NCBI GenBank assembly: GCA_017991415.1
Contig: JAGOQR010000002.1
Location: forward strand, 97,109 to 161,108
Origin: Candidatus Magasanikiibacteriota bacterium
GTDB lineage: Bacteria > Patescibacteriota > Patescibacteriia > Magasanikbacterales > GWA2-37-8
Length of the DNA stretch: 64,000 nt
Reading direction: 5' to 3'
Part shown: positions 2,301 to 23,317 of the stretch, one piece after another
How positions within the stretch are numbered: position 1 is the first letter of the stretch
Layout of the letters: the number at the start of each line of letters is the position of its first letter
The notes under the pieces: model-generated
Seen by the model: the letters and a program-made list of their open reading frames with translations, nothing else
Databases searched by the model: none
Told to the model about the DNA's origin: nothing
Program-made: the position numbers and the translations under genes

Positions 2301-2306
2301 ATTAAT

Positions 2307-3341
2307 TTAAGACATTGCTTGAACTAACATCTCTGCCATAGCATCCATATATCGGCGCGCATCTATAGACAAAGAAGGTATACAAACTGCAGGGCGAGAA
2401 TTAAGCTCTACTAATTTAAATCCATCTTTAGAATTAACAAAGTCTGAAGCAAAAATACTTGGTCGATATTGCGCCAATACAGTGTTTATACGCTCTATCA
2501 TAGGAAGAAGTATTGGTGGTAACTGATCTAAAGACACCTGCACTTCACTGCCTCCCTGAGATACATTTGCTAAAAAAGAGCCGGGTTGTGGCACTCGCAC
2601 CAACATAAATACTGGGTTACCATTAATAGTAATAACACGAATATCGTGCAGGCCATCTACGATTCTCGGGATACCCACAGAATTATCTACAAATTCTTGC
2701 AATAAAATATTATCCCAACTGTCATAGAGGAATTCGTCAATCTCACCTACTGAACGTATATATATTCCTCGCCCGCCGGATAAAAAATTCTTCTTTACAA
2801 CGATTTTATCTGTTTTTTTTAAACCCCACTGGTTTACTATTTGCACATACTCATCATAGGAGCAAATAGTAGAAGTTTTGGGTGATAGATCTGGAAATAA
2901 ACGCGCCGTAGCAACCTTATCAACACAAATTTGATCAAGGTCAGGATGATTAATAATTGGACAATCATAAATAGCAGGAATTGTATTTTTATCATCACGA
3001 TTAAAAATAAGGTCTGCCTCAATATGTTTGTTTATCAATATAAGTTGCCCGTCCCGCACCTGCCATCCATGAGAAAAAATTCCTTTCCCCATATACGAAT
3101 TGCCTCGCACTATATATACTTCAATATTATGCTCTTCGACATTTTTGATAAGACCCTGATACACCTCCCAGTAAGGGTATACTGAGGAATTAAACGGGTA
3201 TCCCATCGGCTCTGAGTCAGAAAAATATATGGCTAATTTTTTCATAATACCTATAACAATAACTCTAACAACATACTCTGTCAACCATATTATTGTCTGA
3301 AAAAAAACCCTATGGTATAGTACGTTTTTAATCTGAAACAC
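2307..3341 (-). CDS. ATP-grasp family ligase (alpha-L-glutamate ligase/RimK-related)
   Basis: Motifs VVKKNFLSGGRGIYI and LVELNSRPA (E-x-N) are ATP-grasp hallmarks. It lies tail-to-tail/adjacent to another ATP-grasp gene. Confidence 0.65.
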   Translation of the reverse strand: MFQIKNVLYHRVFFQTIIWLTEYVVRVIVIGIMKKLAIYFSDSEPMGYPFNSSVYPYWEVYQGLIKNVEEHNIEVYIVRGNSYMGKGIFSHGWQVRDGQLILINKHIEADLIFNRDDKNTIPAIYDCPIINHPDLDQICVDKVATARLFPDLSPKTSTICSYDEYVQIVNQWGLKKTDKIVVKKNFLSGGRGIYIRSVGEIDEFLYDSWDNILLQEFVDNSVGIPRIVDGLHDIRVITINGNPVFMLVRVPQPGSFLANVSQGGSEVQVSLDQLPPILLPMIERINTVLAQYRPSIFASDFVNSKDGFKLVELNSRPAVCIPSLSIDARRYMDAMAEMLVQAMS

Positions 3342-3349
3342 TATAGTTT

Positions 3350-4876: not shown

Positions 4877-4878
4877 GT

Positions 4879-7784: not shown

Positions 7785-8549
7785 ATGCCTAACTTAACAA
7801 TAAAAAACCTACACGCCACTGTTGGCAATACCAAGATTCTTAGTGGAGTGTCTTTGGATATGGCAGCTGGTGAAGTCCACGTAATAATGGGCCAAAATGG
7901 ATCTGGTAAAAGCACGCTACTATCGGTGCTTATGGGCAGTCCCAAATACACCGTTACGATGGGGTCTGTAAAGCTGGATAAAAAAAATATATTAGATCTC
8001 TCTCCTTCCGAGCGCGCCCAAGCTGGATTATTTTTAGGCTTTCAACACCCGCAAGTAGTTGCTGGTGTAGCCTTAGGAAATTTTCTACGATTAGCGCGCA
8101 ACACGATTAGCGCTTCTCAAAAAAATAAAGAGCAACCTATTGCTCCTGCTGCTTTTGCCGTGATGATGCGCGAACAAATGGAAAAACTAAAGATAGATCC
8201 AGGGTTTATATCTCGCTCTATAAACGAGGGGTTTTCTGGTGGTGAAAAAAAGAAATCAGAAGTACTCCAAATGGCAATGCTAAAACCTACCTTTGCCTTT
8301 TTAGATGAGATTGATTCTGGGCTCGATATTGACGCTCTAAAAATAGTTGGAAAAGAATTAAATGCTATTCAAAAAAAACAAGGCATGGGCATGATAATTG
8401 TAAGCCATAACCCTAAAATTTTAGACTTCATTAAGCCCGAAAAAATTCATATCATGTCTAAAGGTAAAATCATAGCTCATGGCGGCAAAGAAATTATCCA
8501 AAAAGTAGAAAAAAATGGTTTTGAATCTTTTCTTAAAAAGAAAAAGTAA
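7785..8549 (+). CDS. sufC: Fe-S cluster assembly ATPase SufC
   Basis: Walker A GQNGSGKST. ABC signature FSGGEKK. Walker B LDEIDSGLD. Directly followed by sufB. Confidence 0.9.
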   Translation: MPNLTIKNLHATVGNTKILSGVSLDMAAGEVHVIMGQNGSGKSTLLSVLMGSPKYTVTMGSVKLDKKNILDLSPSERAQAGLFLGFQHPQVVAGVALGNFLRLARNTISASQKNKEQPIAPAAFAVMMREQMEKLKIDPGFISRSINEGFSGGEKKKSEVLQMAMLKPTFAFLDEIDSGLDIDALKIVGKELNAIQKKQGMGMIIVSHNPKILDFIKPEKIHIMSKGKIIAHGGKEIIQKVEKNGFESFLKKKK

Positions 8550-8560
8550 TATAAAAAATC

Positions 8561-9979
8561 ATGACTATCCCGATAAAAACCAAAAAAATAATTTCGGGTG
8601 CTGGTGATAAATCTGCTTTTTCTTTTCATACCAAAACTAACAGTGTCTTTACGTCCAAAAAAGGATTAGACGAAAATATTATCCGTGAACTTTCTCGCCA
8701 AAAATCAGAGCCTGCTTGGATGCTTGAATTTCGTTTGCAGGCTTACAAAATATTTTTGGAGAAAAAAATGCCAGACTGGGGTGCTGACTTAACTGGTATT
8801 AATTTTGAAAATATTCATTACTATGTTCGACCTCAAGACAAAACCAAACGCAACTGGGACGATGTTCCTGAAGAAATAAAAAATACATTTGAAAAATTAG
8901 GCATCCCCGAAGCTGAACGAAAATTTTTAGCTGGCACAGGTGCACAATTTGAATCTGAAATGGTCTACCACTCACTGGCCAAAAATCTAGCCAAGCAGGG
9001 CGTAATTTTTGAATCAACTGATGACGCTCTCAAAAATCACCCTGAACTTTTTAAAAAATATTTTGGCACTGTAATACCACCTCGAGACAATAAATTTGCT
9101 GCCCTTAATTCGGCTGTTTGGTCTGGGGGCAGTTTTATCTATGTACCAAAAGGTGTCCACGTAGAACTTCCCTTACAAGCCTACTTCCGTATTAATATAG
9201 AAAACATGGGTCAATTCGAACGAACCCTTATTATTGCTGACGAAGGCAGCTCTGTTCATTATGTAGAAGGCTGTACTGCCCCAACATACTCAAGTGATTC
9301 GCTTCATTCGGCGGTAGTAGAGATTATTGTCAAAAAAGGTGCTCGGGTACAATATACCACTATCCAAAACTGGTCTGGTAATGTCTATAACCTTGTAACT
9401 AAACGAGCCGTAGCCGACCAAGATGCTACCATGTTTTGGCTGGATTGTAATCTAGGATCGAAAGTAACCATGAAATATCCAAGCATTATCTTGCGCGAAC
9501 GTGGAGCCAAGGGCGAAATTCAATCACTCGCTTTTGCCTCCAAGGGCCAACATCAAGATGCTGGAGGTAAAGTAATCCATCTAGCGCCCGACACGAGCTC
9601 TACCATTGTTTCAAAATCAATTAGTAAAAATGGCGGACAAACAACCTATCGCGGCCTGGTAAAAGTTATTAAAGGAGCAAAAAATGTCAAAACGCGCGTT
9701 GTGTGTGATGCGCTCATGCTTGACCCTGCTTCCAGGTCTGACACCTACCCAACCATGGATATAAAAGAAAAAGATGTCGCAATTGCTCACGAAGCGACTG
9801 TTGCAAGCATTGGCGAAGATGAACTGTTTTATCTTATGAGCCGCGGGTTATCCGAGGAACAGGCGGCCACTCTTATTGTAAATGGTTTTGCGAGTCCAAT
9901 TATCAAGCAACTGCCGATGGAATATGCCGTAGAATTAAACCGGCTACTCGCACTTGAGATGACTGGCTCAGTTGGATAA
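8561..9979 (+). CDS. sufB: Fe-S cluster assembly protein SufB
   Basis: 472 aa. Conserved SufB core ([33 protein letters not shown]...CTAP) and C-terminal ...[24 protein letters not shown]. Confidence 0.9.
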
Positions 9980-9982
9980 TAT

Positions 9983-10642
9983 ATGAAAATAGAAACCATT
10001 AGTAATTTTTCTAAACCTTTGACTATACAAGCAAACAAACAAGTTTGTTATTTTTTAAATACTATTCCGAGCGTTCAAATACATCTTAAGAAAAATTCTC
10101 ACCTGACCCTGATAGCTTTAGTAACGGACGGATGGGAGGACGAACGCAAACTTGCTATTAATACTCAAGAGCGTGGCGCCACGTGCCAACTGATTGTTTT
10201 TATTCTAGGTAAAAACAACACAACATATACTGCTAAGATACAAGGAATTCATCATGCTCCCGGCACTGGTATTAAAGCAAAAATACGCACCGCCCTAACT
10301 GACAAATCCACCTGCCGCATTGATGGCGATTGGGTAATAGAAAAAAAAGCAAAAGGCACTGATACTCATTTTGCAGCCCATACACTTATACTTTCCGAAG
10401 AGGCAGCGGCCAAAACTTCACCAAATTTAGAAATTAAAACAGATGATGTAAAGGCTGGGCACTCAGCTAGTGTAGGCAAAATCGATGAAGACGCATTATT
10501 CTACCTCCTCTCTCGTGGTATCGATGAGGCAGGCGCTCGGGCGCTTATGGTGCAAGGATTTTTTGAGACTGAAATAAATCATGTCGCAGACGAAAATACC
10601 AAAGAAATTATTCGTGAAGCAATCAAAAAATTTCTTTCTTAA
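9983..10642 (+). CDS. sufD: SufD-like Fe-S assembly protein (short form)
   Basis: C-terminal SufBD motif GHSASVGKIDEDALFYLLSRGIDEAGARALMVQGF. Position between sufB and sufS. Only 219 aa, shorter than canonical SufD. Confidence 0.7.
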   Translation: MKIETISNFSKPLTIQANKQVCYFLNTIPSVQIHLKKNSHLTLIALVTDGWEDERKLAINTQERGATCQLIVFILGKNNTTYTAKIQGIHHAPGTGIKAKIRTALTDKSTCRIDGDWVIEKKAKGTDTHFAAHTLILSEEAAAKTSPNLEIKTDDVKAGHSASVGKIDEDALFYLLSRGIDEAGARALMVQGFFETEINHVADENTKEIIREAIKKFLS

Positions 10643-10645
10643 CTT

Positions 10646-11863
10646 ATGAAAAATTTTAAAAAAGACTTCCCTATTCTTACACGAAAAATCAATAACAAAC
10701 CATTGGTTTATTTAGATAATGCTTCAACTACCCAAAAACCTCGGGCCATGCTTGCCGCATTACAAAAATTTTATACGACCAGCAATGCCAACATTCACCG
10801 CGGCATCCACACTCTATCCGAAGAAGCAACTGCTCAGTACGAAAATACTAGAAAAAAAATTGCCTCATTTATTGGAGCCTCGGTAGCGGAAGAAATAATT
10901 TTTACCAAAAATTGCACGGAGTCCATAAACTGCATTGCTTTTTCTTGGGGAGAACAAAATATTAATGCGGGTGATGAAATCATCATCAGCGCTTTGGAAC
11001 ACCACGCCAACCTAATACCTTGGCAAGAATTAACCAAAAAGAAAAAAGCTACTCTAAAGGTTATCCCGCTAACTACAGACCTAACGCTTGATTTGGATTC
11101 TTATCAAAAACTACTCTCTCATAAAACTAAATTAGTTTGTATTACATCCCAATCCAACGTAACAGGCACCATAAATCCAATTAAAAAAATTGCAGATCTG
11201 GCCCATGCCGCAGGTGCAAAAGTATTAATAGACGGAGCCCAAAGTGCTGGCCATTCCCCTATCAATCTCCGTGATATTAATTGTGATTTTTTTGTTTTTT
11301 CTGCACACAAGATGATGGGGCCAACCGGTGTTGGGGTTTTGTATATCAAGAAAGAAACCATGGCAGGCATGCCACCGTTTATGTATGGTGGCGAAATGGT
11401 AGAATCAGTTAACCAAGAAACTGCCTCTTATCGCTCTGGGCCTTGGAAATTTGAAGCTGGCACACCTAATATTGCCGATGTTGTTGCCTTTGGCGCGAGC
11501 ATAGACTATATAAACAGTATTGGTCTAAAAAATATAGACAGCCATAGCCGCACGCTACTTGCCTACGCAAAAAAGGTTTTTGGTAAATATAATAAAATTA
11601 AAATATTTTCTCCTCCTCATAATTCCGAGGCAGGGCCTGTTTTATCTTTTTCTATTAACGGCGTACACCCACACGACATAGCCACTATATTTAACAACGA
11701 AGGTGTAGCTATACGCTCTGGACTGCACTGCGCCGAACCACTCATGAACCAACTTGGCGTAAACGGCACAGCCCGAATGAGCTTCTATATATATAATACA
11801 AAAAAAGATATAGATGTGGCAGAAAAAGCTTTAAAAAAGGTATTAAAAATATTTAAAATCTAA
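10646..11863 (+). CDS. sufS: Cysteine desulfurase SufS (PLP-dependent)
   Basis: LDNASTTQKP and HRGIHTLSEEAT at the N-terminus. Class-V aminotransferase with the PLP lysine region SAHKMMGPTGVGVLY. Active-site Cys in RSGLHCAEP. Confidence 0.9.
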   Translation: MKNFKKDFPILTRKINNKPLVYLDNASTTQKPRAMLAALQKFYTTSNANIHRGIHTLSEEATAQYENTRKKIASFIGASVAEEIIFTKNCTESINCIAFSWGEQNINAGDEIIISALEHHANLIPWQELTKKKKATLKVIPLTTDLTLDLDSYQKLLSHKTKLVCITSQSNVTGTINPIKKIADLAHAAGAKVLIDGAQSAGHSPINLRDINCDFFVFSAHKMMGPTGVGVLYIKKETMAGMPPFMYGGEMVESVNQETASYRSGPWKFEAGTPNIADVVAFGASIDYINSIGLKNIDSHSRTLLAYAKKVFGKYNKIKIFSPPHNSEAGPVLSFSINGVHPHDIATIFNNEGVAIRSGLHCAEPLMNQLGVNGTARMSFYIYNTKKDIDVAEKALKKVLKIFKI

Positions 11864-12229
11864 ATGGATATATACACCGAGACAATTCTCGATCATTATC
11901 AAAACCCTCACCACGCAGGCGCGCTTAGCGACCCCACAAACTCCACCACCGAATACAACCCCTTATGCGGAGACACTATTAAAATTGATTTAAAAATAAA
12001 AAATAGCACTATCACTCAAGTTGGTTTTGTTGGTAATGGCTGCGCTATTAGTCAAGCTGCTATGTCTATGCTAGCAGACCAAATAGAGGGCAAAAAGATT
12101 TCTTCTATAAAAAAAATAAAACCAAAAACTATATACGACCTACTTGGAGTTACCATTAGCCCAGGTAGAACAAAATGCGCCTTACTTGGTTTAAGCGCTC
12201 TACAAAAACTAATTAACAAACATGAGTAA
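11864..12229 (+). CDS. sufU: SufU/IscU-family Fe-S scaffold or sulfur-transfer protein
   Basis: NPLCGD...GNGCAISQAAMS...KCALL cysteine triad pattern of the NifU-like N-terminal domain. Confidence 0.8.
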   Translation: MDIYTETILDHYQNPHHAGALSDPTNSTTEYNPLCGDTIKIDLKIKNSTITQVGFVGNGCAISQAAMSMLADQIEGKKISSIKKIKPKTIYDLLGVTISPGRTKCALLGLSALQKLINKHE

Positions 12230-12542
12230 AATAATCCCAACACCACCCGAAGAGCGCACCCAAAAATATTGGGATTCGCTTAATAATATTATAGACCCAG
12301 AAATTGGTATTGGTATTATTGATCTTGGACTCGTCTATGCTATAGAAATAAAAAATAGCACTGCCTTAGTTACTATGACCTTTACCAGTATGGGCTGCCC
12401 AGCTGGACCAAGTCTTATCGAGCAAATAAAAGAAGAGATGGAAAAATTACCTAAAATAAAAAAAGTAAAAATAACAATTGTTTGGGACCCAATCTGGACC
12501 GTTGATCGAATAAACCCCGATGTTCGAGAAATGCTCCCCTAA
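12222..12542 (+). CDS. sufT: SufT/DUF59 (MIP18-family) Fe-S cluster assembly protein
   Basis: DPEIGIGIIDLGLVY...TFTSMGCPAGP motif is typical of DUF59/PaaD-like proteins found at the end of suf operons. Confidence 0.7.
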   Translation: MSKIIPTPPEERTQKYWDSLNNIIDPEIGIGIIDLGLVYAIEIKNSTALVTMTFTSMGCPAGPSLIEQIKEEMEKLPKIKKVKITIVWDPIWTVDRINPDVREMLP

Positions 12543-13198
12543 CCTTTGGCTAACACCATACCCCAAACAGTTTTAACACCAGCATTTTTAAGAACTTTGG
12601 CACACTCTTGCATCGTAGAACCTGTTGTAAAAACATCGTCTATAAGCAAAACTTTTTTTGGAATAGAATTATTATCACTAAAAACAAAAGCTTCATTTAA
12701 ATTTTTTCTTCTTTCTTCACCAGATAGCTTGGCTTGTTGTTTGGTATACATTTTTCGAAATAAACGCTGACAAATAGGAAGCTCTAATTTTTCAGAAAAT
12801 AAATTAGCAATATATTCCGCCTGATTAAACCCTCGCTCACGCTCACGACGGGGATGTAACGGCACGGACATAATCACAAAACCGTCTAATTTTGGATAAC
12901 CAGAAACACCTACAATCAGCTGGCGCAACTCAACGAGCACCTCAGTTATATATTTATATTTTAACATTTTCAATAATTCTGAAACTGGGTTTTCTCCATA
13001 ACTAAAAAAGGCAGTTAGGCCGTCCAAATAAGATTTGCCTTCTACTGCCTCTAATGCAAAATTTTCTGCGGTAGTATTTTTAGGAAAACATGCCTGACAC
13101 AACCAGGTTCCTTCGGCTTTACAACTAACACAGTATGTTGGAAATAATAAATCCTTTAGCCACGCCAGAGTTCTGCCCATAGCGCTCATTAATTCCAA
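12539..13198 (-). CDS. comF: ComF family protein (phosphoribosyltransferase-domain competence protein)
   Basis: N-terminal Cys-rich finger (CVSCKAEGTWLCQAC). C-terminal PRTase motif VLLIDDVFTTGSTM. Confidence 0.8.
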   Translation of the reverse strand: MELMSAMGRTLAWLKDLLFPTYCVSCKAEGTWLCQACFPKNTTAENFALEAVEGKSYLDGLTAFFSYGENPVSELLKMLKYKYITEVLVELRQLIVGVSGYPKLDGFVIMSVPLHPRRERERGFNQAEYIANLFSEKLELPICQRLFRKMYTKQQAKLSGEERRKNLNEAFVFSDNNSIPKKVLLIDDVFTTGSTMQECAKVLKNAGVKTVWGMVLAKG

Positions 13199-13773
13199 GT
13201 CAGCTTATCAGCCAACCAAACCCCACTCTCTTTAACCATTTCGACTGTCACATTTTGATAGCGATTAGTAATTACTCCGTTTTTATCTTCCGTTCTCATG
13301 GTCTTCAAACTAACAGTTGCCTTATCAGCAGACCAGCTTACTAAATCGATGCTCATAACTTTGGTAGTAAGACCCAAAAATGTCTGATTTGTATTTTTTG
13401 TATTAAGACCTGTACTAATTCTAGACCACAACGATTTGGTTACCAAAGATTGAGACTCGACAATGTTTTGTCCATTATTATCAGTGGAATAGGTGCCGTA
13501 ACGCTCTATAAATATTTTTGAAAGCTGCTCAACTGCATTTTTTTCAACCTCTTCTGAAGAAGGTTGCTTAACAGAAACCCCCGCTGGTATTTCTGTAGCT
13601 ACCTGACCAATAGACAGATCATTATTTTGGTTATTATTAACATTTACATCCGTAGAAACATCTGTTATTTGCGTAGTTTTATTTTTATTTCTTACTATCA
13701 AAAATATACTTATAGCGAGTACTAAAAACACTACTACGCTGATGATAAAGAAAATTCGAGCACGAAGTGACAT
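13189..13773 (-). CDS. Bitopic membrane protein (N-terminal TM, Q/N-rich linker, C-terminal globular domain); possible VirB8-like component
   Basis: A single N-terminal hydrophobic helix is followed by a roughly 150-aa domain. It lies next to the VirB4-like gene. No diagnostic motif. The VirB8-like role is inference from topology and context. Confidence 0.35.
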   Translation of the reverse strand: MSLRARIFFIISVVVFLVLAISIFLIVRNKNKTTQITDVSTDVNVNNNQNNDLSIGQVATEIPAGVSVKQPSSEEVEKNAVEQLSKIFIERYGTYSTDNNGQNIVESQSLVTKSLWSRISTGLNTKNTNQTFLGLTTKVMSIDLVSWSADKATVSLKTMRTEDKNGVITNRYQNVTVEMVKESGVWLADKLTWN

Positions 13774-13797
13774 ATTATATAGTAGATTAAATACTAA

Positions 13798-15669
13798 TTA
13801 CTGTGTTTGTTTTTCAAATTCTTTTTTAGAACGCTCTATCTCTAAGAGCTGCTCTGGATTAGTAGTAACTAATTGATCCTCGGTATAGGAAGCAACAACC
13901 TTAATGGCCGCATGCTTATTACCAGCAAAGAAAATACCTTCCCCCACTCCACTCTCTAATAATAAGTATTTTTCTCCTTCTGTAAGAATAAATACTTTTT
14001 GCACCAAATCAATGGCTGCTGGAGACTGACGCAACAACAATTGCAAAGCAGAGTTAGTCACAATCGCTTGGCCGTACTGAGATTTAAGAAAATCGTTTAC
14101 ATCCTGAGTAATAGTTGTGACACCAAGATAATATTTACGGGCTCGTTTAACAAGCGCAAAAATAAACCTAGCACTATCTTCATGCTGCATCAACCACCAG
14201 GCCTCGTCGATCACCAGGATTCTTTTTTTACGCTCAGAACGAACTACATTCCAAATGTAATTTATAATTGCATAAATTGCCATTGGACGTAGCTCATCCT
14301 CCAAATCACGGACACTGAAAACTACTAACTGATTTTTCATGTCCACATTAGTTGGCGAGTTGAAAAGTCCGCTAAACGTACCTTCAGTATATTTTTTTAA
14401 TCGCAAGACCAAATCTCCAGAACCTTCCATACCTTCTAAAATTTCTTGCAGGTCTTGGATTATTGGCGGCTGCACCAGGCTTAAGTCAGCTTCGGGAGTA
14501 ATATCTTTTTTGGCATACGTTTCAATGAGAGCCCGATCTATAATCGAGTCTTGCTCCGTAGTAAGATTGCCCAACATAATGCGCAGCAAACCTTTGACAG
14601 TTATGACTGCTCCACGAATAATGTCTTCGGTAGAAAAATCTTCGCCACCAGTAGGTCTTGGTAAATCAAAAGGGTTTACCTTACTTTCTGAAGAAAGAGA
14701 GATATTAATATATGTTCCTCCAACAGCGTCGGCTAAATGCTTGTACTCCATTTCAGGGTCAATCACAATTACATCTACACCCATCATCATAGAACGTAAA
14801 ATTTCTAGTTTTATGGTATAACTTTTTCCCGCACCAGATGTAGCAAACACGGCCATATTAGCATTCTGGAGAGAAAATCTATCAAATAAAATAAGGCTGT
14901 TGTTGTGGCGATTAACGCCATACAAAATTCCATCATCGGAGGTAAGTTCGGCAGAAGTGAACGGAAACGAAGCTGCAATTGGCGAAGAATTAAGATTGAA
15001 CGAGACCATAAGCTCGTCGTTAGCGAGTGGTAACGTAGAATTAAACCCTTGCTCTGCCTGATACAAAACTTTACGACTAGTAATTAGCTTGGAGCCAAAA
15101 ATATTTTCAACATCTTCCGAAGTTTGATCAAGTTCTTCTTTAGTTTTGGCATACAAAGTGACATAAAAAGCAAACTGAAAGAAATGCTCTATGCCCTGGG
15201 TAAGATCGTCGCGCAGCTGCTCTATGTCGCGCAACGCTGTTTCACGGACCGGATCACGCGGCGCTCCTTTTTCGGAATCAGCGGTGAGCTGAGCTTCCAA
15301 GGCACCTACTTTATTTCTTAATTGCTTTAAAATTACAGCGGATTTTACAGGATAAAAAAACATACTCACATCCATAGTAATGGACAAGTTGAGCACTGGA
15401 GAGCTCCAACCAATAGAAATATACCTTGGATATGTCACGATAAAAATAGTGCGACAAAAAATATCTCCTAATTTTACAAAGTTTGATTCTACATTAAAGG
15501 CAGATGGCGCTAACAAATCTTTGATGGAAACCGTGCCCTCACGATACACCCGCTCCTCTTCCAGGGTTACGAGCTCCTCGGTTGATTTTTTAGCAATTTC
15601 CTCTTCTTTACTTGCCAAGACTCCCTTTTGTTTTACAGAGCCTGTGGCAAATTTTGGTTTAAAAGCCAT
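13798..15669 (-). CDS. VirB4/TraC/PrgJ-like type IV secretion or conjugation ATPase
   Basis: Walker A AVFATSGAGKSYT. Walker B with the VirB4-family signature RILVIDEAWWLM (DEAW). Size 623 aa. Adjacent PrgI/VirB3-like gene. Confidence 0.8.
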   Translation of the reverse strand: MAFKPKFATGSVKQKGVLASKEEEIAKKSTEELVTLEEERVYREGTVSIKDLLAPSAFNVESNFVKLGDIFCRTIFIVTYPRYISIGWSSPVLNLSITMDVSMFFYPVKSAVILKQLRNKVGALEAQLTADSEKGAPRDPVRETALRDIEQLRDDLTQGIEHFFQFAFYVTLYAKTKEELDQTSEDVENIFGSKLITSRKVLYQAEQGFNSTLPLANDELMVSFNLNSSPIAASFPFTSAELTSDDGILYGVNRHNNSLILFDRFSLQNANMAVFATSGAGKSYTIKLEILRSMMMGVDVIVIDPEMEYKHLADAVGGTYINISLSSESKVNPFDLPRPTGGEDFSTEDIIRGAVITVKGLLRIMLGNLTTEQDSIIDRALIETYAKKDITPEADLSLVQPPIIQDLQEILEGMEGSGDLVLRLKKYTEGTFSGLFNSPTNVDMKNQLVVFSVRDLEDELRPMAIYAIINYIWNVVRSERKKRILVIDEAWWLMQHEDSARFIFALVKRARKYYLGVTTITQDVNDFLKSQYGQAIVTNSALQLLLRQSPAAIDLVQKVFILTEGEKYLLLESGVGEGIFFAGNKHAAIKVVASYTEDQLVTTNPEQLLEIERSKKEFEKQTQ

Positions 15670-15710
15670 ACAAATTTTTAAATCCTAAATCGTATTTGTT
15701 AAAGTTAGCC

Positions 15711-16388
15711 TTATTCAACGCGCAAATCACTCACAGCGGGCATATGCTCGCTAAAGGCGATGTCTGGATTATAGGTAGAATAAAATAGTTCGATAAGTGA
15801 TTGGGTATCTAATCGCACTACCTCTAAATTCATACTGGTAAGGCCAGACTCAATCTGTCGCACTCTCATATCCAGGTCATGTTTACGCAACTGAAACCGT
15901 TCGTCTTTGAGTTTAATGGTAACGGCTGGGTTAATAACTTCTTTTATCCTAGACCAAAAGCCTCTCTTTTTATTGGAAAGCGGGTCGTAAGGAACCACCA
16001 CAAAGAACTGCTTACTCATAATATTTCCCAAACTTACCAATTCTGAAACAAAAGATCTGTAATCAGCAATCTGAACGCGTAATAATTCATTGGTTTGCTC
16101 TCGTTCTTTTTTTAATAATTTTTCTAAATACGGCTTAATATATAGTTGGCGTGACTGCACCAAAATCTGCAAAGGAAAATCAATGCCGTTTAAAAAAGAA
16201 ACATACGAAGATACTATCGCATTTTGTTCATCTTCGTTTTTTAAAGCAAAATTAATGCTAGAAACCAAAAGCACCGCTCGCAATGTGCCATCTTTCATTA
16301 CCACTGTATCAAACTTTACTTCTGCAAATGGCAAATGACTCTGCGCGCTTGGTACTTTTATTTTTTTAGTTTTTGGTTTTTCTTCCAT
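15711..16388 (-). CDS. hypothetical protein within the T4SS-like cluster
   Basis: 225-aa ORF tightly packed between the PrgI-like and VirB4-like genes. No motif recognised. Confidence 0.4.
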   Translation of the reverse strand: MEEKPKTKKIKVPSAQSHLPFAEVKFDTVVMKDGTLRAVLLVSSINFALKNEDEQNAIVSSYVSFLNGIDFPLQILVQSRQLYIKPYLEKLLKKEREQTNELLRVQIADYRSFVSELVSLGNIMSKQFFVVVPYDPLSNKKRGFWSRIKEVINPAVTIKLKDERFQLRKHDLDMRVRQIESGLTSMNLEVVRLDTQSLIELFYSTYNPDIAFSEHMPAVSDLRVE

Positions 16389-16415
16389 ACGCTATATATG
16401 TAACTAATACCATAA

Positions 16416-16850
16416 CTACCTCGGTTCATTTCCAGAATAGTAGCCGCCTGTATTAACTATTAACGATAAATCTCTAATCCGACTATACGACATTCGAGGT
16501 ACTTCTTTTGCCATTTCAACAACTTCTACCTTACCTAGGCTTATTGAATCTTGTAACTCAGCTTTACTAAATGTTTTATACCAAATTCTACGACTTGGCC
16601 TCCGTACTGTTTGAATAATATTAAGCAAAAAATAATGAAAAGGCTGTCCGTTAACTTTTACAAAAGCGAGTACAAGAGCCAAACCGCCAATAAGCGCTGC
16701 TAAAAAAATAAACAAAGCTGTGTCCGCTAATTTAAAAGCAATAAATAAAATAAGGCCTGCTACCAATAAAATAATAAACTGCCTGGTAGTTATAGGACCA
16801 AAAATTTTATCTTCCACTTCAATAAATTGCGGCACTACGAACTGATCCAT
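16416..16850 (-). CDS. PrgI/VirB3-like small membrane protein
   Basis: 144 aa with two adjacent TM helices (FIILLVAGLILFIAF...LFIFLAALIGGLALVLAF). It sits immediately upstream of the VirB4-like ATPase, as VirB3/PrgI homologues do. Confidence 0.55.
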   Translation of the reverse strand: MDQFVVPQFIEVEDKIFGPITTRQFIILLVAGLILFIAFKLADTALFIFLAALIGGLALVLAFVKVNGQPFHYFLLNIIQTVRRPSRRIWYKTFSKAELQDSISLGKVEVVEMAKEVPRMSYSRIRDLSLIVNTGGYYSGNEPR

Positions 16851-16864
16851 ATTGACAAATTACA

Positions 16865-17980
16865 CTATAAATCTTTTTCCATTTCAATTATTGCCATTAC
16901 CTCTGTTAATTTTATACTATTTTTTGTACTAAGTACATTGGCTAGTGTTTTTCTTTCAACAAGCGACTGAGAAACTGCAGCCATATACTCTAAATAAAGG
17001 GGCGAATTATGATAGGCAGCAATACCGTCTAAGTACCAAACAAAAGATTCGTCTTTTAGATTAGACATTTTTTGATACAATCTCTTGGCAGCTTCTTCTG
17101 GATTACTTGATAACCTTCTAAATTCTTCGAGGGTTATTGATCTAAACTCTTCAACAGGCCCCATTTCAACATCGGCTGGAGCAGACACGTCCTGCATAAC
17201 AGGTCGAACAGCTGACTTATTACTAATCTTAAATATTGGCTCACTGGCGATACTTTCATTAATTATTTTTGAAATAATTTGGTGACCTGCATTTTTGTCC
17301 ACCACAACCGCAGACGTGCTATTTTTTACTGGAGCAGTATTCTGCACTGGAATAACCATTGGTAATTCTGGTGGCTCTACCATAAGTGCCATATTGCGCG
17401 ACTTACCTTTTAGGACAACGGTGTCTGAATGCGACTCTTTGGGACTAGAATTATTTGCACCAAGCACTTCATGACAAACCGTAATTACTTTTTCTACTTG
17501 CACCTGCGACAAACCAATACCTCCGTTTTTTGTTGGACGTATCAATGCTTCTTTTACCTCTTCTTCGCTTTTAATATCTTTGAGTCTGGCCAAAACAAGG
17601 CTTTTGAGGCGGCCTTGCAGATCTGTAGCTACCCCAAAACCAATTTTTCTTATCACCTCTTCTACTTGGCCATCGCGTTTTACACTTGTAAGCGATGCTT
17701 GGCTTTTGATCGGCATTTTTTCTTCAAGCGGTGAACGAGCATCCTCTCGGGTTAATTTTTTATGTTGAGATGCGCCGCTATTTTGGTTAGAGGTATTTTT
17801 TATTTCAATCGTCGTTTTGTTCATTACTTGATTTGGTGATGAATTACTAACAGCAGCTGACGCAACCACCTTTCCTACCTCTTGCTGTTTTTTTTCTGCT
17901 TGAATTTTTTTAAATTCGCTAAGAGTAACTTTGGTAAAAGTTCCATCTGGTTTTTTAATTGTCATCATTGGTTCTGCCAT
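16865..17980 (-). CDS. hypothetical low-complexity protein (T4SS-like cluster)
   Basis: 371-aa ORF rich in S/N/K/E. No recognisable catalytic motif. Confidence 0.4.
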   Translation of the reverse strand: MAEPMMTIKKPDGTFTKVTLSEFKKIQAEKKQQEVGKVVASAAVSNSSPNQVMNKTTIEIKNTSNQNSGASQHKKLTREDARSPLEEKMPIKSQASLTSVKRDGQVEEVIRKIGFGVATDLQGRLKSLVLARLKDIKSEEEVKEALIRPTKNGGIGLSQVQVEKVITVCHEVLGANNSSPKESHSDTVVLKGKSRNMALMVEPPELPMVIPVQNTAPVKNSTSAVVVDKNAGHQIISKIINESIASEPIFKISNKSAVRPVMQDVSAPADVEMGPVEEFRSITLEEFRRLSSNPEEAAKRLYQKMSNLKDESFVWYLDGIAAYHNSPLYLEYMAAVSQSLVERKTLANVLSTKNSIKLTEVMAIIEMEKDL

Positions 17981-17995
17981 ATAACTATTACTTTA

Positions 17996-18973
17996 TTACT
18001 CTTTCCATTTAAATTTATCGTCTTCTTCGTCATAATAAATCATGTCAGCAATTTTTGGATCATTATACATTTCGGTAAACTCCTCCAACTTGCGCATTAC
18101 CCCCTCTATATTTTCAAAATTTCCCTCTGCGTCTTTTTTAAACTCGGATTCTATTTGTGATTTTATTTCTTGAGGGGTTAGGGGTTCTTCACTACTACCA
18201 ACAACCACATCAGACTCCGAATCAACGGGGCTTTCTTCGGGCAACAACTGCTCAATTGTAATATTTTCTATTTCGTCAGCCTGATCTGCTGATGGCAGAG
18301 TTTGATTCTCCAACTGTTCCGGATTTAAAAATAAATCTACTACAAACCAAATTTTTTCAATATCTATTACTTGAAAAAATTCAATTAGTTCTAAAAATCT
18401 GTTTACACCTACATCTGGATCTGTGTATGTATAGATAAGAGCTTCTTTAGGAAAAAGAATTTGTCTTATTTTACTAATAAGCTCAGCTTCCTCTATAGAA
18501 GAGGCCCTTCTTTTTTGCATCAATATATACTCAGATACCAAATCTTTTAGTATTATTTTTTTTCCTTGCCATAATCCTAAAGACTCCTCGGATTGTAAAA
18601 ATGCCGTTTGAATCTTGAGATAAAAAGCTTGAGTATCCTGTTTATCTAAAGTTCGAAAACCTAAATACCACATCAATGATTCTAGAACAGAATAATTATT
18701 AAACAAAGCCATTGGTACTTGTTGAATAAAAGCGGTTATCACATCCTCTTTAGACAGAGAGTTCAGATTTTTCCAAGTTAGCTCTACATACCATTTCCAA
18801 TAAGTAAATTTAAAAGCCTCCCGCTGCTCTGCCGACACAACAGAAAAATAATCTCTCATTTCTTTCCAAAGGGAATTAGAGGTATTAATATCAGAAATAA
18901 TCCTCTGAAATTCAAGTTCTTTCTGTTTAACCTCTTCAATTGTTAAATTTTTTTTATCAAAAAACATATTCAA
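17996..18973 (-). CDS. hypothetical acidic protein (T4SS-like cluster)
   Basis: 325-aa ORF with a very acidic C-terminus. Tight spacing with neighbours: its stop at 17996 is 16 nt from the next start at 17980. Confidence 0.4.
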   Translation of the reverse strand: MNMFFDKKNLTIEEVKQKELEFQRIISDINTSNSLWKEMRDYFSVVSAEQREAFKFTYWKWYVELTWKNLNSLSKEDVITAFIQQVPMALFNNYSVLESLMWYLGFRTLDKQDTQAFYLKIQTAFLQSEESLGLWQGKKIILKDLVSEYILMQKRRASSIEEAELISKIRQILFPKEALIYTYTDPDVGVNRFLELIEFFQVIDIEKIWFVVDLFLNPEQLENQTLPSADQADEIENITIEQLLPEESPVDSESDVVVGSSEEPLTPQEIKSQIESEFKKDAEGNFENIEGVMRKLEEFTEMYNDPKIADMIYYDEEDDKFKWKE

Positions 18974-21900
18974 TTATGGCAGATTTTTTATCTTATCCAA
19001 TAATTCACTTGCTCTGGCGTCGAACCTATCCTTAGCATTTTTATCAGTCAATACTTTACTAATTTCATTTAAAAGATTCTCGTACTCAGCTTTATTAGTA
19101 GAATTAACATCCGCATTATTCAAAGAACTAAAGAAACCATTCTGCATCTGCGATATAAATAAATCATTTTTACCTTGGAATATAGCCGCAAGCTGCTCTG
19201 CTCTTTTTGAATCAAAGCCCACAATTTGATTCTCAACATTTATTTTTGCATACCCATTGGCTGTAATCCACTTTCTGTGATCAGCTTCAGCAATTTTGGT
19301 AGGATAAAAACCAGACCCCACATTTATTTCTCCAGTATTAACCGTTTTGGTAGCCTGATCATACTGCCCAAAAAATCTTTCCAACTGACCGGAACTAGTT
19401 CTTCTATCGCCTACCAAACCAAATAGCGCACCCGCACCTTTCATACCGGCACTCTTATTCGCATTACTATATAATGTTAAAGCACCTTGAGCTTTTTCGA
19501 TTCCACCAAAAGCATCATATACTTTCTTAGCAGCAAGGGTTTCGTCACCCGCCATAACAACCCTGCCTAAAATTTTACTTAATTCAGCTCTGATACGATT
19601 AGTATCATCAATGACTTCTGTCCAACCAATGGTCTTTAGAGATTCACTATCCCCAAGTTCCGCCGCTTCTTTACCTTCAGATTTGAGGGCTGTTTGTAGT
19701 GCCATGTTTCGTTGAATAGTTTTATTTTTAATCTGCTCTAGACGTTTGACTTCATCTGGTTTGTTAGCTGTACTCGCTGCAGCTATATCAACCTCTAACT
19801 GCTGAATTTTTAATGGCATAGCTTTTAATGCAAAGGTTTTATCTTCCCAACTCATTGCAGAAACTCTATCACTTTCTCTTTTTGCTGTTTTAGATTGAAT
19901 CTCGGCCAAAACTTGATTGGCTCTTAAATCATCACCCATCTTCCTAAATGATTTAGCGCGCTGCTCAGCTTCGGCTTCTTCTTTTGAAATATCAAAATCT
20001 TCTTTTATGTTTGCAGTTTGAGCTTTGGTGAAGTTTATAATTTCCTGAGTTTTTGCACCTTTGCCTTCTAATAATTTTTTTATTTGCTTTAACTCTTCAA
20101 GCTCTTTTTCTGCACGTAATTTTTCATCTAACTGCTTTGACGCCGCCTCTTCTTTTGCTGCCTTATGTTCCAAAGTATGACCTAGTCCAGTTTGAAGTAA
20201 TTTTTCTTTTGTCTCTAACCTATGACGCTCTTCTTCCGCATGCAAGGCATGTTTGGTTAAATCGGCTTTTTCTCCAGCCTCTAAAGCCCTCTTACTTCTG
20301 CTTTGATCAAATATTTGCGCTCGGCTAAACTTTCCAGATTTTGCCAATTCCTCAGGAGTTTTACCCACCTTAAGCTCTGCTGCAATTTCATTACTTGCAT
20401 CATTAAACTTCTTATAGAAAGTTTCTAATTTTTCTTTTTTAATATTGGACCCTGTTTCCTCTAATTTATGTAGTCTGGCCTCGGCCTCTGTCTTAAACTT
20501 TCCTATAGGCGTTTTGCTTGTACTTACCAAATGCTCAAGTTGCTCATGAGCATACTCTGCCCCTGATTCTGCATCTTTTGTGTACTCTTCTTTAAAAGCA
20601 GCTGGCGCGAACCATAAAGCCATGCGCGCCAAAGCCCTCGTATTGCCTGCAAAAGACTTTTTTAATTCTGTCTTTCCATTTTTGTCTGTATCAACTTCAT
20701 AGCCATTATCCTGCAACTGCTTACTGTAATTCTCTATAGCACTGTCATCATGACTAGCCACCGCAGCATTACGGAGAGCAACTAATTTTTGAATCTCTGG
20801 ATGTTCTTTTGATAAATCTTTGACCTTTTCTTTACCGTAAGCTTTATTAATATTTTCTCCAGCTTTATAAAGTCTTGGCTCTACCCACTTCTTTGAATAC
20901 CACTTAGACGCAGCAGCTTTAATTCTCCTACCTCTTCTATTCCACTCATCACCACCAACAATAGGAGCTTTCATTAAAGCAAATTTACCTGCAGCTTTGG
21001 CACCCTCTCCAACCTTACCCGCAGTCCATCTAGCAGCTTGTAGACCAGAGGCGTACATTGCCACTTTCTTACCCAACTCTCCAGCACTTCCCATCATAGA
21101 ACCACCCGCAACTCCTAATTCTTGGGCCATTTTTGCACCAGCAAGAAGCATGGCAATAGCGATTATAAAATTGGCCATTTTGTCCCAACTCATTATTTTG
21201 GTAATACCAACAGTTTCTTCTTCGGCTGTGCCTGATTGCAATAATTGATCTTTTTGTAAGGCGTTATGTTTTACAATGTCGTCGTGAATAGTTCCAGAAC
21301 CAACCGTTACAAAAGAAAGCCACAGAAAAAAAGCAATGACCGGACCAGACACGACATTACTACCAAATTGATGCCACCAATCGTGGGCATATTTTTCGGT
21401 TTGATGTAATACATTGAGGACAAATGCCAAAGGAGATAACACGATAAGCACCCAAAGCATGGCCATGCGAGCTACGATTAAAAACAAAAAGGCAAGCATG
21501 GTAACGAGCATGATAACTGAGAAAGTAATAGAGGCCACAGCCGCCACAAAAGTGACACTGGCACTGCCTGTTGTCCCCTGGCCTGCAGCTAACGCAAAAA
21601 TTTGATCTACCTGGAACATGTTAACCAGATTTCCGCTGGCAGTAGCAGCAATACCATTTACAAAGGTAACCATGACAATCTGTGCAATATCGATAATAAG
21701 ACCACAAATTACACGGCTAAAATTGACAAGTACGGCGGCTATAAGTAATTTTACCAGTAAGTGCTTATATTCGTATTGTTCTATTCCTAAAATAGTGCCG
21801 AATGCAATCATAAGCAGCACAACTACAAAGAACATATTGGTCATGTCGCGAATCATCACCCAACCTACCGTAACAGCCGGAGAGTCTATAAACCCGTTAT

Positions 21901-22165
21901 ACCCTGCAACCTCGATAATAAACTTGAGCACGAAAAAAGTGAGCTTGATAAAAAACCCAGCCAGTGCTAACAAAACAGAAGCAAAAAAATTCATGAGATC
22001 CTCGCCGATACCAGCATGAGCAGTAGGGGTAAAAATCAACCAGGCAGAGATAATAATACTAGACAGAACAACAATACTAACCAAACCTAATTTTTTTCGG
22101 GGACGAAAAAAATCCCAGCCTTTGCTAAGTATCAAGGTAAATGTGCTTTCAAGTTTCGCAAACAT
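18974..22165 (-). CDS. VirB6/TrbL-like polytopic membrane protein with about 700-aa K/E-rich coiled-coil C-terminal extension
   Basis: The N-terminal 330 aa or so contain 7-8 TM helices in a TrbL/VirB6-like arrangement. The remainder is lysine/glutamate-rich and predicted coiled coil. It is the first gene of the minus-strand T4SS-like operon. Confidence 0.55.
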   Translation of the reverse strand: MFAKLESTFTLILSKGWDFFRPRKKLGLVSIVVLSSIIISAWLIFTPTAHAGIGEDLMNFFASVLLALAGFFIKLTFFVLKFIIEVAGYNGFIDSPAVTVGWVMIRDMTNMFFVVVLLMIAFGTILGIEQYEYKHLLVKLLIAAVLVNFSRVICGLIIDIAQIVMVTFVNGIAATASGNLVNMFQVDQIFALAAGQGTTGSASVTFVAAVASITFSVIMLVTMLAFLFLIVARMAMLWVLIVLSPLAFVLNVLHQTEKYAHDWWHQFGSNVVSGPVIAFFLWLSFVTVGSGTIHDDIVKHNALQKDQLLQSGTAEEETVGITKIMSWDKMANFIIAIAMLLAGAKMAQELGVAGGSMMGSAGELGKKVAMYASGLQAARWTAGKVGEGAKAAGKFALMKAPIVGGDEWNRRGRRIKAAASKWYSKKWVEPRLYKAGENINKAYGKEKVKDLSKEHPEIQKLVALRNAAVASHDDSAIENYSKQLQDNGYEVDTDKNGKTELKKSFAGNTRALARMALWFAPAAFKEEYTKDAESGAEYAHEQLEHLVSTSKTPIGKFKTEAEARLHKLEETGSNIKKEKLETFYKKFNDASNEIAAELKVGKTPEELAKSGKFSRAQIFDQSRSKRALEAGEKADLTKHALHAEEERHRLETKEKLLQTGLGHTLEHKAAKEEAASKQLDEKLRAEKELEELKQIKKLLEGKGAKTQEIINFTKAQTANIKEDFDISKEEAEAEQRAKSFRKMGDDLRANQVLAEIQSKTAKRESDRVSAMSWEDKTFALKAMPLKIQQLEVDIAAASTANKPDEVKRLEQIKNKTIQRNMALQTALKSEGKEAAELGDSESLKTIGWTEVIDDTNRIRAELSKILGRVVMAGDETLAAKKVYDAFGGIEKAQGALTLYSNANKSAGMKGAGALFGLVGDRRTSSGQLERFFGQYDQATKTVNTGEINVGSGFYPTKIAEADHRKWITANGYAKINVENQIVGFDSKRAEQLAAIFQGKNDLFISQMQNGFFSSLNNADVNSTNKAEYENLLNEISKVLTDKNAKDRFDARASELLDKIKNLP

Positions 22166-22450: not shown

Positions 22451-22479
22451 TTGACAAAAGCCCCGAAAAAGCGTATAAT
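22451..22479 (+). promoter_or_regulatory. Perfect sigma70 consensus promoter TTGACA-17 nt-TATAAT pointing toward the GC-rich island
   Basis: TTGACA at 22451-22456. 17-nt spacer. TATAAT at 22474-22479. Orientation is rightward, toward the ORF at 22697. Confidence 0.5.
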
Positions 22480-22696
22480 ACGACGTTATTGCAAAATAAC
22501 CGCTCCTTACAACGTGCCAAGATTAGCAAAACTGCTAATTTTAGCCAAAATATGATGATGGAATAATTTGACCTAGCTGATAGGCGCAAAGATCTGGGCT
22601 GATACTTACCCCGCTCAAACGAGGTAGTTACAAGCTCAGACTCTAAACCCTGTCTCTAATGTCGCGTGAGCGACTGTTCAACCCCTGGAGGATCCC

Positions 22697-23227
22697 ATGC
22701 GCATCGCCCTCTCGTCTCTTGCCCTCGCCCTGGCCCTCATCGGCTGTACCGACCCCGACGTCAACATCGTCGACGGCGGACCCACGCCGGACGGACCCAA
22801 GCTCGACGCGGAGACCACCGAGGTCGACGCGGGCATCGACGCTCCGGGTGACATCTGCTTGTCGCTCGGTACTCCGCCGGAGGGCGCCTACCTCCTTGGG
22901 GAGGGGTCACGCAGCTGGCGTTGCGGCTTCTCGGCAGCACCGGGAAATCACAACACCTTCGCAATCGCCGCAGGTACGGACTGGATGTGCTCGAGCATCC
23001 GAGTCGAACCGACCACGACGGCCCAGGGTCCCGCCTGCCTGGTTTCCTGTATGGATGCCTCTGGCAACACCATGGACCAGCTCAGCAACACGGACTACCG
23101 TGAGCTGACCGTGGAGCGAGCCGGGGCTACCATGCCGTACAGGTTCTACTACGGCATCCCCGGAACGCCGCCCGCAGAGGCAGAGTTTGTCTGCCACGAC
23201 CCGGCAACGGTGCCATTTCCATCGTGA
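22697..23227 (+). CDS. Putative lipoprotein encoded in a high-GC foreign island
   Basis: 176-aa ORF. GGAGG lies 6 nt before the ATG. Signal peptide with lipobox LALALALIG-C. GC3-rich codons (GCC, CTC, GAC, ACC and so on) are unlike every other gene in the window. Followed by a GC hairpin. Confidence 0.6.
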   Translation: MRIALSSLALALALIGCTDPDVNIVDGGPTPDGPKLDAETTEVDAGIDAPGDICLSLGTPPEGAYLLGEGSRSWRCGFSAAPGNHNTFAIAAGTDWMCSSIRVEPTTTAQGPACLVSCMDASGNTMDQLSNTDYRELTVERAGATMPYRFYYGIPGTPPAEAEFVCHDPATVPFPS

Positions 23228-23248
23228 ACTGTCACGACCCATCATCAC

Positions 23249-23277
23249 GGCAGCCGAACCATCGCGGTTCGGCTGCC
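23249..23277 (+). terminator. Perfect 12-bp GC-rich hairpin (GGCAGCCGAACC-atcgc-GGTTCGGCTGCC) downstream of the island ORF
   Basis: Perfect inverted repeat with no T-tract. This is the high-GC-organism style of terminator or REP-like element. Confidence 0.45.
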
Positions 23278-23317
23278 ACCCTCAACTTAATAGAAAAAAA
23301 TTTTCTCTTGAGTAGAA

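Follow-up and report, generated by a model that had tools for sequence, protein, structure and literature searches.

Which machine does a bacterium of the Patescibacteria build from a compact cluster of eight genes that combines parts of a type IV secretion system (T4SS) with a competence gene, and does this machine serve conjugation, the uptake of DNA or the transport of other molecules? The cluster lies between positions 12539 and 22165 of a 64-kb stretch of DNA (the window; all coordinates refer to this whole stretch) from an ultra-small Candidatus Magasanikbacteria bacterium, i.e. class ABY1 of the Patescibacteria, and is also found on the 831,086-bp contig JAHZTO010000001.1 of the Magasanikbacteria metagenome-assembled genome (MAG) GCA_020049755.1. 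Based on the evidence presented below we consider it likely that the locus is the ABY1 (Magasanikbacteria) form of the chromosomal, vertically inherited T4SS of the Patescibacteria and that it encodes an envelope translocon rather than a conjugation module.

The eight open reading frames (ORFs) are all encoded on the minus strand and, as the first-pass annotation of this DNA had proposed from the sequence alone, they are tightly packed and end at comF, the gaps from the comF end to the VirB6 end being -10, 24, 41, 27, 14, 15 and 0 nt. Five of the eight genes code for T4SS parts, namely a VirB6-like protein, PrgI/VirB3, a TrsD-like protein, VirB4 and a VirB8-like protein, i.e. together they are the core of a monoderm T4SS at the level of the cytoplasmic membrane, with VirB6, VirB3, a split VirB4 and a VirB8-like component (Table 1). 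Promoter and terminator scans of the operon gave counts that were not above the expectation from shuffled sequence (57 vs 52.7 and 21 vs 15.2, respectively), so that operon boundaries cannot be drawn from these scans.

The motor of the system is a VirB4-family ATPase, in agreement with the initial assignment that had been based on the GAGKS and DEAW motifs. The 623-aa protein matches the NCBIfam model NF045971 (VirB4-like conjugal transfer ATPase, CD1110 family) with 362 bits, above the curated cutoff of 325, over profile positions 173-730 of 752, and its Walker A (SGAGKS) and Walker B (VIDEAW) motifs can be read directly. It also matches PF19044 (E-value (E) 5.8e-27), with further hits to P-loop_TraG, AAA_10 and DUF87, and aligns nearly end to end with TrsE of plasmid pSK41 (BLASTP, E 3e-43). 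An identity as FtsK/HerA was considered and rejected, as the HerA model reached only E 0.0047. Models of the TraD/VirD4 type remained at E>0.01 on this protein, the VirD4-like CD1115 model giving E 0.052.

The 225-aa protein encoded next to VirB4 had been regarded as unannotatable, but several lines of evidence identify it as TrsD/TraC-like: it matches the TrsD model NF041427 (E 4.7e-8), aligns with TrsD of pSK41 (BLASTP, E 8e-7), and the public record of the identical sequence carries PF26593 (TraC-like). Moreover, it covers positions 98-233 of the VirB4_plasma (mycoplasma VirB4) profile and positions 21-93 of the CD1110 profile, which by sequence comparison makes it homologous to the N-terminal region of a full-length VirB4. 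BLASTP against the full-length PrgJ gave no match, and the link to VirB4 N-termini is thus drawn only from the profile models and TrsD. Given the gene order PrgI-225-aa protein-VirB4 and the TrsE and TrsD alignments to pSK41, VirB4 is present here in its pSK41/pGO1-type form, i.e. as a short VirB4 plus TrsD. The small membrane protein belongs to the PrgI/VirB3 family (PF12666, 45.7 bits vs a cutoff of 27); one transmembrane (TM) segment was scored (residues 46-64) and a second hydrophobic stretch (about 24-42) can be read off the sequence. The first-pass annotation was therefore right about its family, but not in placing the gene immediately before virB4, from which it is separated by the TrsD-like gene.

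The 1063-aa product of the first gene was predicted early on to be a polytopic protein of the VirB6/TrbL type, and remote as well as transitive evidence argues that it does belong to this family. A hydropathy scan indicates about six to seven hydrophobic TM segments within residues 26-350, followed by a hydrophilic, coiled-coil-rich C-terminal region of about 700 aa. The profile of the VirB6-like family (A1) aligns by hhalign with pSK41 TrsL, which is annotated as a TrbL family member, over 206 columns (probability 87.7%, E 3.4e-6), including the region of an R...P...WW motif; under another match-state rule the same region is aligned with a probability of 38% and E 3e-4. The N-terminal domain has 32 homologues, those named coming from Magasanikbacteria, Uhrbacteria, Andersenbacteria, Colwellbacteria and unclassified Patescibacteria MAGs, and PF04610 (TrbL/VirB6) is matched by three of 24 aligned homologues (best E 1.8e-7), among them P0020, which is related to the query with E 7.7e-28. 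Comparisons of A1 with PrgH and of profile A2 with PrgL by hhalign were only marginal (P 0.019 and 0.008, respectively), and that of A2 with TrsH was likewise marginal or nil. The long hydrophilic tail qualifies the protein as an "extended VirB6" as this term is used in PMC12857230, and in a close relative (L001) the C-terminal part is encoded by a separate gene of 375 aa.

The 194-aa bitopic protein (annotated as KBC69_02975, 100% identical) has no family match by sequence. Its AlphaFold2 model, calculated with 60 homologues (pLDDT 82.3), consists of a TM helix (residues 3-30), a disordered linker (32-59) and a cone-shaped, NTF2-like alpha+beta domain (73-193). In a fold comparison this model scores 10.7 with TraH of pIP501, 10.3 with TcpC and 10.2 with PrgL, all of which are VirB8-like proteins from Gram-positive systems, and 10 or less with generic NTF2-like enzymes. 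The model thus supports a VirB8 fold, extending the earlier remark that the protein is VirB8-like in topology.

Scanning one genome per GTDB species with a VirB8-like profile yielded 46 loci, in which synteny was scored with hidden Markov models made in this analysis; 34 of these loci have enough upstream sequence and 43 are testable for comF. The block p371-PrgI-TrsD-VirB4-VirB8-like is present in 34/34 loci and the full seven-gene order in 27/34, and this recurrence across species implies that the arrangement is not due to chance. Judged from the sequence identities to loci L009 and L010 (Table 1), the motor, i.e. VirB4, TrsD and PrgI, is under very strong purifying constraint, which argues against a decaying relic of a mobile element. 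In more distant Patescibacteria (L003-L005) the order is KsgA ... TSP3-like protein, a secreted protein that varies in size, VirB6/TrbL, one or two unassigned genes, PrgI, TraC-like protein and VirB4, with further proteins lacking family hits past VirB4. As a side observation, many of the GTDB representative MAGs that carry this Magasanikbacteria-type T4SS locus (L012-L054) are titled "uncultured Gammaproteobacteria bacterium", which is evidently a submission artefact that could mislead taxonomy-based surveys.

The genomic context is that of a chromosome. The operon is flanked on one side by the suf Fe-S operon (7785-12542, plus strand) and on the other side by genes for KsgA, an MFS transporter, Sua5, RF-1, GroEL, YidC, NusA, ComEC, LeuRS and IF-2, and its GC content and skew match those of the remaining window. 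Pfam searches of all window ORFs of at least 150 aa revealed no relaxase, no VirD4/type IV coupling protein (T4CP) and no VirB11, as had been noted from the sequence. These observations bear on the possibility that the cluster belongs to an integrated conjugative element as its mating-pair-formation module, the relaxase and coupling protein then lying outside the window, or is the decaying relic of such an element. Its nearest characterised relatives are indeed conjugation systems, i.e. pSK41/pGO1 and the CD1110 family of Clostridioides integrative and conjugative elements, and PMC12102498 (Quinonero-Coronel et al. 2025) reports VirD4 homologues in many Patescibacteria, usually remote from virB4, and relaxases in 103 genomes. 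However, neither an integrase nor a relaxase, a T4CP or repeats were seen in the window, the flanks are housekeeping operons, the base composition of the cluster matches that of the remaining window, and the same cluster recurs in 46 species with intact ORFs and very strong purifying selection on VirB4, TrsD and PrgI, which is the opposite of decay or patchiness, so that we regard this explanation as highly improbable. As coupling protein and relaxase are lacking in the cluster and its chromosomal inheritance is fixed, conjugative export of DNA by this machine is unlikely.

Comparison with two well-known conjugation systems underlines both the kinship and the differences. The trs system of pSK41/pGO1 from Staphylococcus aureus, which belongs to the MPF_FATA subclass, has the same core order TrsC (VirB3)-TrsD-TrsE (short VirB4, 672 aa in pSK41), and the membrane domain at the N-terminus of the VirB6-like protein is where its TrsL (VirB6/TrbL) aligns. 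In contrast, the plasmid pSK41 also encodes a relaxase, TrsK (VirD4), the TrsG hydrolase, a topoisomerase and SSB, none of which is encoded in this cluster; here, VirB6 comes first in the operon and carries a C-terminal extension of about 700 aa, and comF, p371 and p325 have no counterpart in pSK41. In pCF10 of Enterococcus faecalis, PrgJ is a full-length VirB4 and there is no separate TrsD, and the PrgK hydrolase, the coupling protein PcfC, the relaxase and the adhesin PrgB of that system are absent from this cluster.

The kind of T4SS to which the locus belongs, including its association with comF in ABY1, has already been published, and the window provides a well-resolved example. According to PMC12102498, VirB4 proteins of Patescibacteria form a clade related to MPF_FATA with TrsD as the commonest partner, PrgI is present, VirB6 is detected in a patchy manner, VirB8 homologues are found almost only in ABY1, relaxases are lacking, KsgA is in the proximity, and comF occurs in ABY1 loci. 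The window shares the chromosomal position near housekeeping genes including KsgA, the MPF_FATA-related VirB4, the TrsD-like protein, PrgI and a divergent VirB6, the lack of a relaxase or coupling protein in the cluster and, as an ABY1 locus, comF and a detectable VirB8-like protein. It differs from what is described there in lacking VirB2-like pilin arrays as well as a peptidase or lysozyme gene next to virB4, in the two conserved soluble orphans between VirB6 and PrgI, in the extended VirB6 (1063 aa), and in the giant surface protein and the GC-rich lipoprotein gene located upstream, neither of which is met in the descriptions available. The intergenic gaps of the window contain no small two-TM ORF that could encode a VirB2-like pilin, and no cell-wall hydrolase (lytic transglycosylase, CHAP, M23 or lysozyme domains) was found among its ORFs of at least 150 aa; this accessory factor is, according to PMC12102498, often unlinked in Patescibacteria. 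To the published picture our analysis adds the fold-level assignment of VirB8, direct links to TrsD, TrsE and TrsL, two orphan families, numbers for the linkage to comF and the genes for surface proteins upstream.

The last gene of the operon ties the T4SS to competence. By sequence, its product is a divergent, full-length ComF of the ComFC type with an N-terminal zinc ribbon and a phosphoribosyltransferase domain: TIGR00201 is matched over its full length (1-190/190, E 2.5e-30) with 105.8 bits, below the cutoff of 233.55, PF00156 with 28.7 bits vs a cutoff of 26.3, and the zinc ribbon DZR_2 weakly. The VirB8-like gene's stop codon and the comF ATG overlap (TAATG), suggesting translational coupling, and comF follows the VirB8-like gene immediately in 39/43 testable species loci (start at most 300 nt downstream; median gap 3 nt), a link that is retained at L010 despite different flanks. 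In Helicobacter pylori, the ComB system is a DNA-uptake T4SS that functions without VirD4, VirB11 and relaxase and works with ComEC and ComFC; it is a system of a diderm, with homologues of VirB7, VirB9 and VirB10 and a VirB2-like protein. Set beside ComB by description only, the present cluster resembles it in having no VirD4, VirB11 or relaxase and in its genetic tie to a competence protein.

Thus, the locus might encode a DNA-uptake T4SS, i.e. a putative importer of DNA or nucleic acids comparable to ComB or the archaeal Ced system, with ComF receiving the incoming single strand. Such a role could explain why comF overlaps the VirB8-like stop codon and stays adjacent to this gene in nearly all testable loci whatever the flanks, and it would fit a cluster without relaxase or T4CP that shares its window with ComEC (46032-47606) and whose VirB4 shows a partial match to CedB (E 1.2e-14). 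This match amounts to 54 bits, however, far under the 700-bit cutoff of the CedB model NF041017, and with CedD at 25 bits vs a cutoff of 600 there is no membership of the Ced type. Furthermore, the comF link is limited to ABY1 whereas the T4SS core is phylum-wide, and the adjacency could mean co-regulation only. PMC12102498 reports comF, recG and radA in T4SS loci of ABY1 and suggests functional coordination. On the other side stands Southlakia epibionticum, so far the sole member of the Patescibacteria to have been examined genetically, for which PMC10633639 (Wang et al. 2023) describes the T4SS (SEML1_0006-0019) as essential, but comEC, comF and dprA as not essential; ComEC is required for its competence, which has been ascribed to the com system acting with type IV pili (PMC10633639, PMC12857230). 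Weighing these arguments, we regard DNA uptake as the unlikely, but not negligible, primary function of the machine. Apart from this question, it may be recorded that the ComEC gene (46032-47606, minus strand) encodes only DUF4131 and Competence and no metallo-beta-lactamase (MBL) domain, with separate MBL-fold genes immediately upstream (Lactamase_B_3, 47610-48245, minus strand) and three genes downstream (Lactamase_B, 43935-44810, minus strand).

Of the four ORFs listed as unannotated in the first-pass annotation, the TrsD-like and, by fold, the VirB8-like protein have found relatives, and p371 and p325 are the two for which that description holds: they are true orphans, i.e. lineage-specific soluble proteins without known relatives. 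Both lack TM segments, and hhalign of their family profiles (A3 and A4) against all 27 transfer proteins of pSK41 and pCF10 yielded nothing at E<0.05. p371 has an N-terminal beta-hairpin motif and two helical domains (residues 100-177 and 275-370) connected by disordered linkers. p325 is acidic (isoelectric point 4.4) and the fastest-evolving member of the operon, but its C-terminus is conserved, with an E..F.W motif and the invariant residues L296, E316, F321 and W323; the family comprises 299 cluster representatives at E<=1e-3 and is found in 28/34 species loci. Neither Pfam nor PDB sequences gave a meaningful match to p325, as a profile search of PDB and Pfam scans of 62 family members returned only scattered chance hits. 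As candidates for adaptors or substrates specific to the lineage, the two orphans rank first. A more far-reaching idea is that the T4SS of ABY1 has been rebuilt as a machine for the acquisition of nucleic acids, in which DNA or RNA of an attached host would enter through a VirB4/VirB6/VirB8 channel lacking coupling protein and relaxase, single strands would be handed to the co-translated ComF and the orphans would stand in for the missing cytoplasmic adaptors; we consider this doubtful.

Taken together, the reading that we prefer is that of a chromosomal envelope translocon. The first-pass annotation had likened the locus to the minimal T4SS of episymbiotic ultra-small bacteria and set it apart from plasmid modules, and the housekeeping flanks as well as PMC12102498 and PMC10633639 agree with this view. 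On the basis of established T4SS architecture, PrgI and TrsD would dock the VirB4 hexamer under a membrane channel formed by VirB6 and VirB8. By analogy with Southlakia, the machine would more likely carry proteins, or macromolecules of another kind, through the envelope where the bacterium is in contact with a host cell; the Southlakia system is, as stated in PMC12857230 with reference to PMC10633639, so far the only T4SS without which its own bacterium has been shown not to survive. In ABY1, the activity of the machine may in addition be coordinated with the handling of incoming single-stranded DNA, as the fixed comF link suggests.

Several points weigh against this interpretation. The assignment of VirB6 comes from remote profile evidence, since the 1063-aa protein has no direct match in Pfam or NCBIfam and a search of PDB sequences with profile A1 returned only coiled-coil noise and did not find VirB6/TrwI. 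The function is wholly inferred, with no substrate, pilin or cell-wall hydrolase encoded in the window, and a VirD4-like protein or a relaxase could lie elsewhere on the 831-kb contig. Finally, the analogy with Southlakia crosses classes, and the VirB2-like pilin arrays described for that organism are missing here.

The conserved cluster probably extends upstream of the operon to position 31555, including two genes for putative surface proteins (Table 1). Homologues of the giant Cys-rich protein are located upstream of VirB6 in L002, L009 and 13/34 species loci, and homologues of the membrane-anchored protein with thrombospondin type-3 (TSP3) repeats are found two genes upstream of VirB6/TrbL in the distant loci L004 (E 1.7e-9) and L005 (E 6e-9). 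Together with a variable lipoprotein, the TSP3-repeat anchor and the giant protein with its CBM domain are candidates for a contact or adhesin module, their association with the T4SS being positional only.

The lipoprotein gene, which lies divergently in a spacer of 1.2 kb that separates VirB6 from the giant gene, stands out by its composition. Its GC content at third codon positions (GC3) is 0.79 as compared to 0.307 +/- 0.034 in 44 window genes (z=14), and the region 22551-23300 is the sole GC island (>=0.55) of the 64-kb window, reaching up to 67% GC over 300 bp. GC islands occupy the same position in 15/23 species loci, accounting for 17/24 islands found across those loci, and a strict screen detected GC3-rich lipoprotein ORFs at that position in 14 loci, with a few more recognised by eye and GC3 values of up to 0.96. 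These ORFs all begin with lipoprotein signals, but fall into several sequence families that are mutually undetectable; none of ten such proteins was matched by Pfam, and the window lipoprotein had no relative in the JGI metagenome contigs scanned. The lipoproteins of the window and of L023 are homologous (about 38-45% identity) and both genes are GC3-rich, so that amelioration seems to be actively prevented, be it by selection or by biased gene conversion. Two other explanations of the island were rejected: a non-coding RNA, as no Rfam family matches and the pattern of GC at the three codon positions as well as the lipoboxes indicate protein-coding sequence, and an assembly artefact or one-off foreign insertion, as many independent MAGs carry the island at this very position. 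The lipoprotein gene itself is also present in independent assemblies. In an extreme variant of the nucleic-acid acquisition idea set out above, the hypervariable lipoprotein gene may be tied to such traffic, having been captured from, or being aimed at, a partner of high GC content.

The consensus sigma-70-type promoter upstream of the lipoprotein gene is the only 12/12 match in 20 kb; the same promoter is found with 12/12 matches in L013 and with 10-11/12 in eight more loci, and its distance to the ATG is about 190-230 nt in most of these nine further loci and 80 and 140 nt in two. In a subset of the promoter-bearing loci it is followed by a conserved leader of about 90 nt in which the motifs CTTTACAAAGTGCTAA and TTTAGCCAA are retained and a hairpin shows covariation, with compensatory changes in 7/22 pairs in an RNAalifold analysis of five sequences. 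A covariance model of this leader detected it in full length seven times across 821 kb from related loci, each time at the lipoprotein position, and no Rfam family matches it, making the leader a candidate for a new cis-regulatory leader or small RNA. In four genomes (L029, L037, L038 and L039) a second GC-rich island is observed just after comF, at a distance of about 9.5-11.3 kb downstream from where VirB6 starts, so that GC-rich genes border the T4SS-comF block on either side there. The second islands of L029, L037 and L039 contain ORFs with GC3 values of 0.71-0.80, and the ORF of L039 opens with a lipoprotein-like signal, after which comes a D/S/T-rich repeat.

Table 1. Features of the T4SS locus and its upstream region. 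Coordinates refer to the window unless a species locus is named; the fourth column gives sequence identity to loci L009 / L010 in per cent.
Feature	Coordinates	Strand	Identity to L009 / L010 (%)	Remarks
comF (ComFC-type)	12539-13198	-	53 / 37	last operon gene
VirB8-like bitopic protein, 194 aa	13189-13773	-	59 / 43	
VirB4 ATPase, short TrsE-type, 623 aa	13798-15669	-	94 / 83	
TrsD/TraC-like soluble protein, 225 aa	15711-16388	-	88 / 75	
PrgI/VirB3-like small membrane protein, 144 aa	16416-16850	-	81 / 61	
p371, orphan soluble protein, 371 aa	16865-17980	-	51 / 32	
p325, orphan acidic soluble protein, 325 aa	17996-18973	-	42 / 35	
Extended VirB6/TrsL-like polytopic protein, 1063 aa	18974-22165	-	52 / 53	first operon gene
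Sigma-70-type promoter TTGACA-17-TATAAT (22451-22479) plus leader of about 90 nt	22451-22568	+		217 nt upstream of lipoprotein ATG
Lipoprotein gene, 176 aa	22697-23227	+		lipobox LALALIGC; divergent from VirB6; annotated KBC69_03010
Giant Cys-rich protein, 2522 aa	23367-30935	-		CBM_4_9 (PF02018, E 1.2e-6); N-terminal hydrophobic signal/anchor-like segment
Membrane-anchored acidic protein, 198 aa	30959-31555	-		thrombospondin type-3 (Ca-binding) repeats; PF18884 below cutoff
Leader instance, L013	1046-1138	-		
Leader instance, L015	1203-1299	-		
Leader instance, L020	1429-1519	-		
Leader instance, L021	764-852	-		
Leader instance, L023	1403-1499	-		
Leader instance, L044	947-1028	-		

Two further regions of the window deserve mention in their own right. 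The genes at 1227-7236 encode ATP-grasp proteins (RimK/ATPgrasp_ST), a membrane protein of the 7TM_transglut type that carries a PKD domain, and an ATP-grasp protein fused to a MATCAP-like carboxypeptidase domain, a cluster that resembles a peptide-ligation or modification system. The leucyl-tRNA synthetase (48247-51900, minus strand) has 1217 aa and contains a HAD-like hydrolase (about residues 377-534) and a serine hydrolase or alpha-beta hydrolase (about 656-804) as inserts that separate the editing domain from the C-terminal portion of the catalytic core.

A large part of bacterial diversity belongs to the Patescibacteria, which live in attachment to other cells. The locus in the window is a clean and complete example of the T4SS from ABY1, in which the identity of five parts is fixed, including the pSK41-type split of VirB4, and in which the assignment of the VirB8-like protein is supported by structure, a gain for a group of proteins that sequence profiles largely miss outside ABY1. 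Moreover, the surface proteins encoded upstream are indicated as a possible contact module. The published picture of these systems is left unchanged, but it gains concrete targets for experiments.

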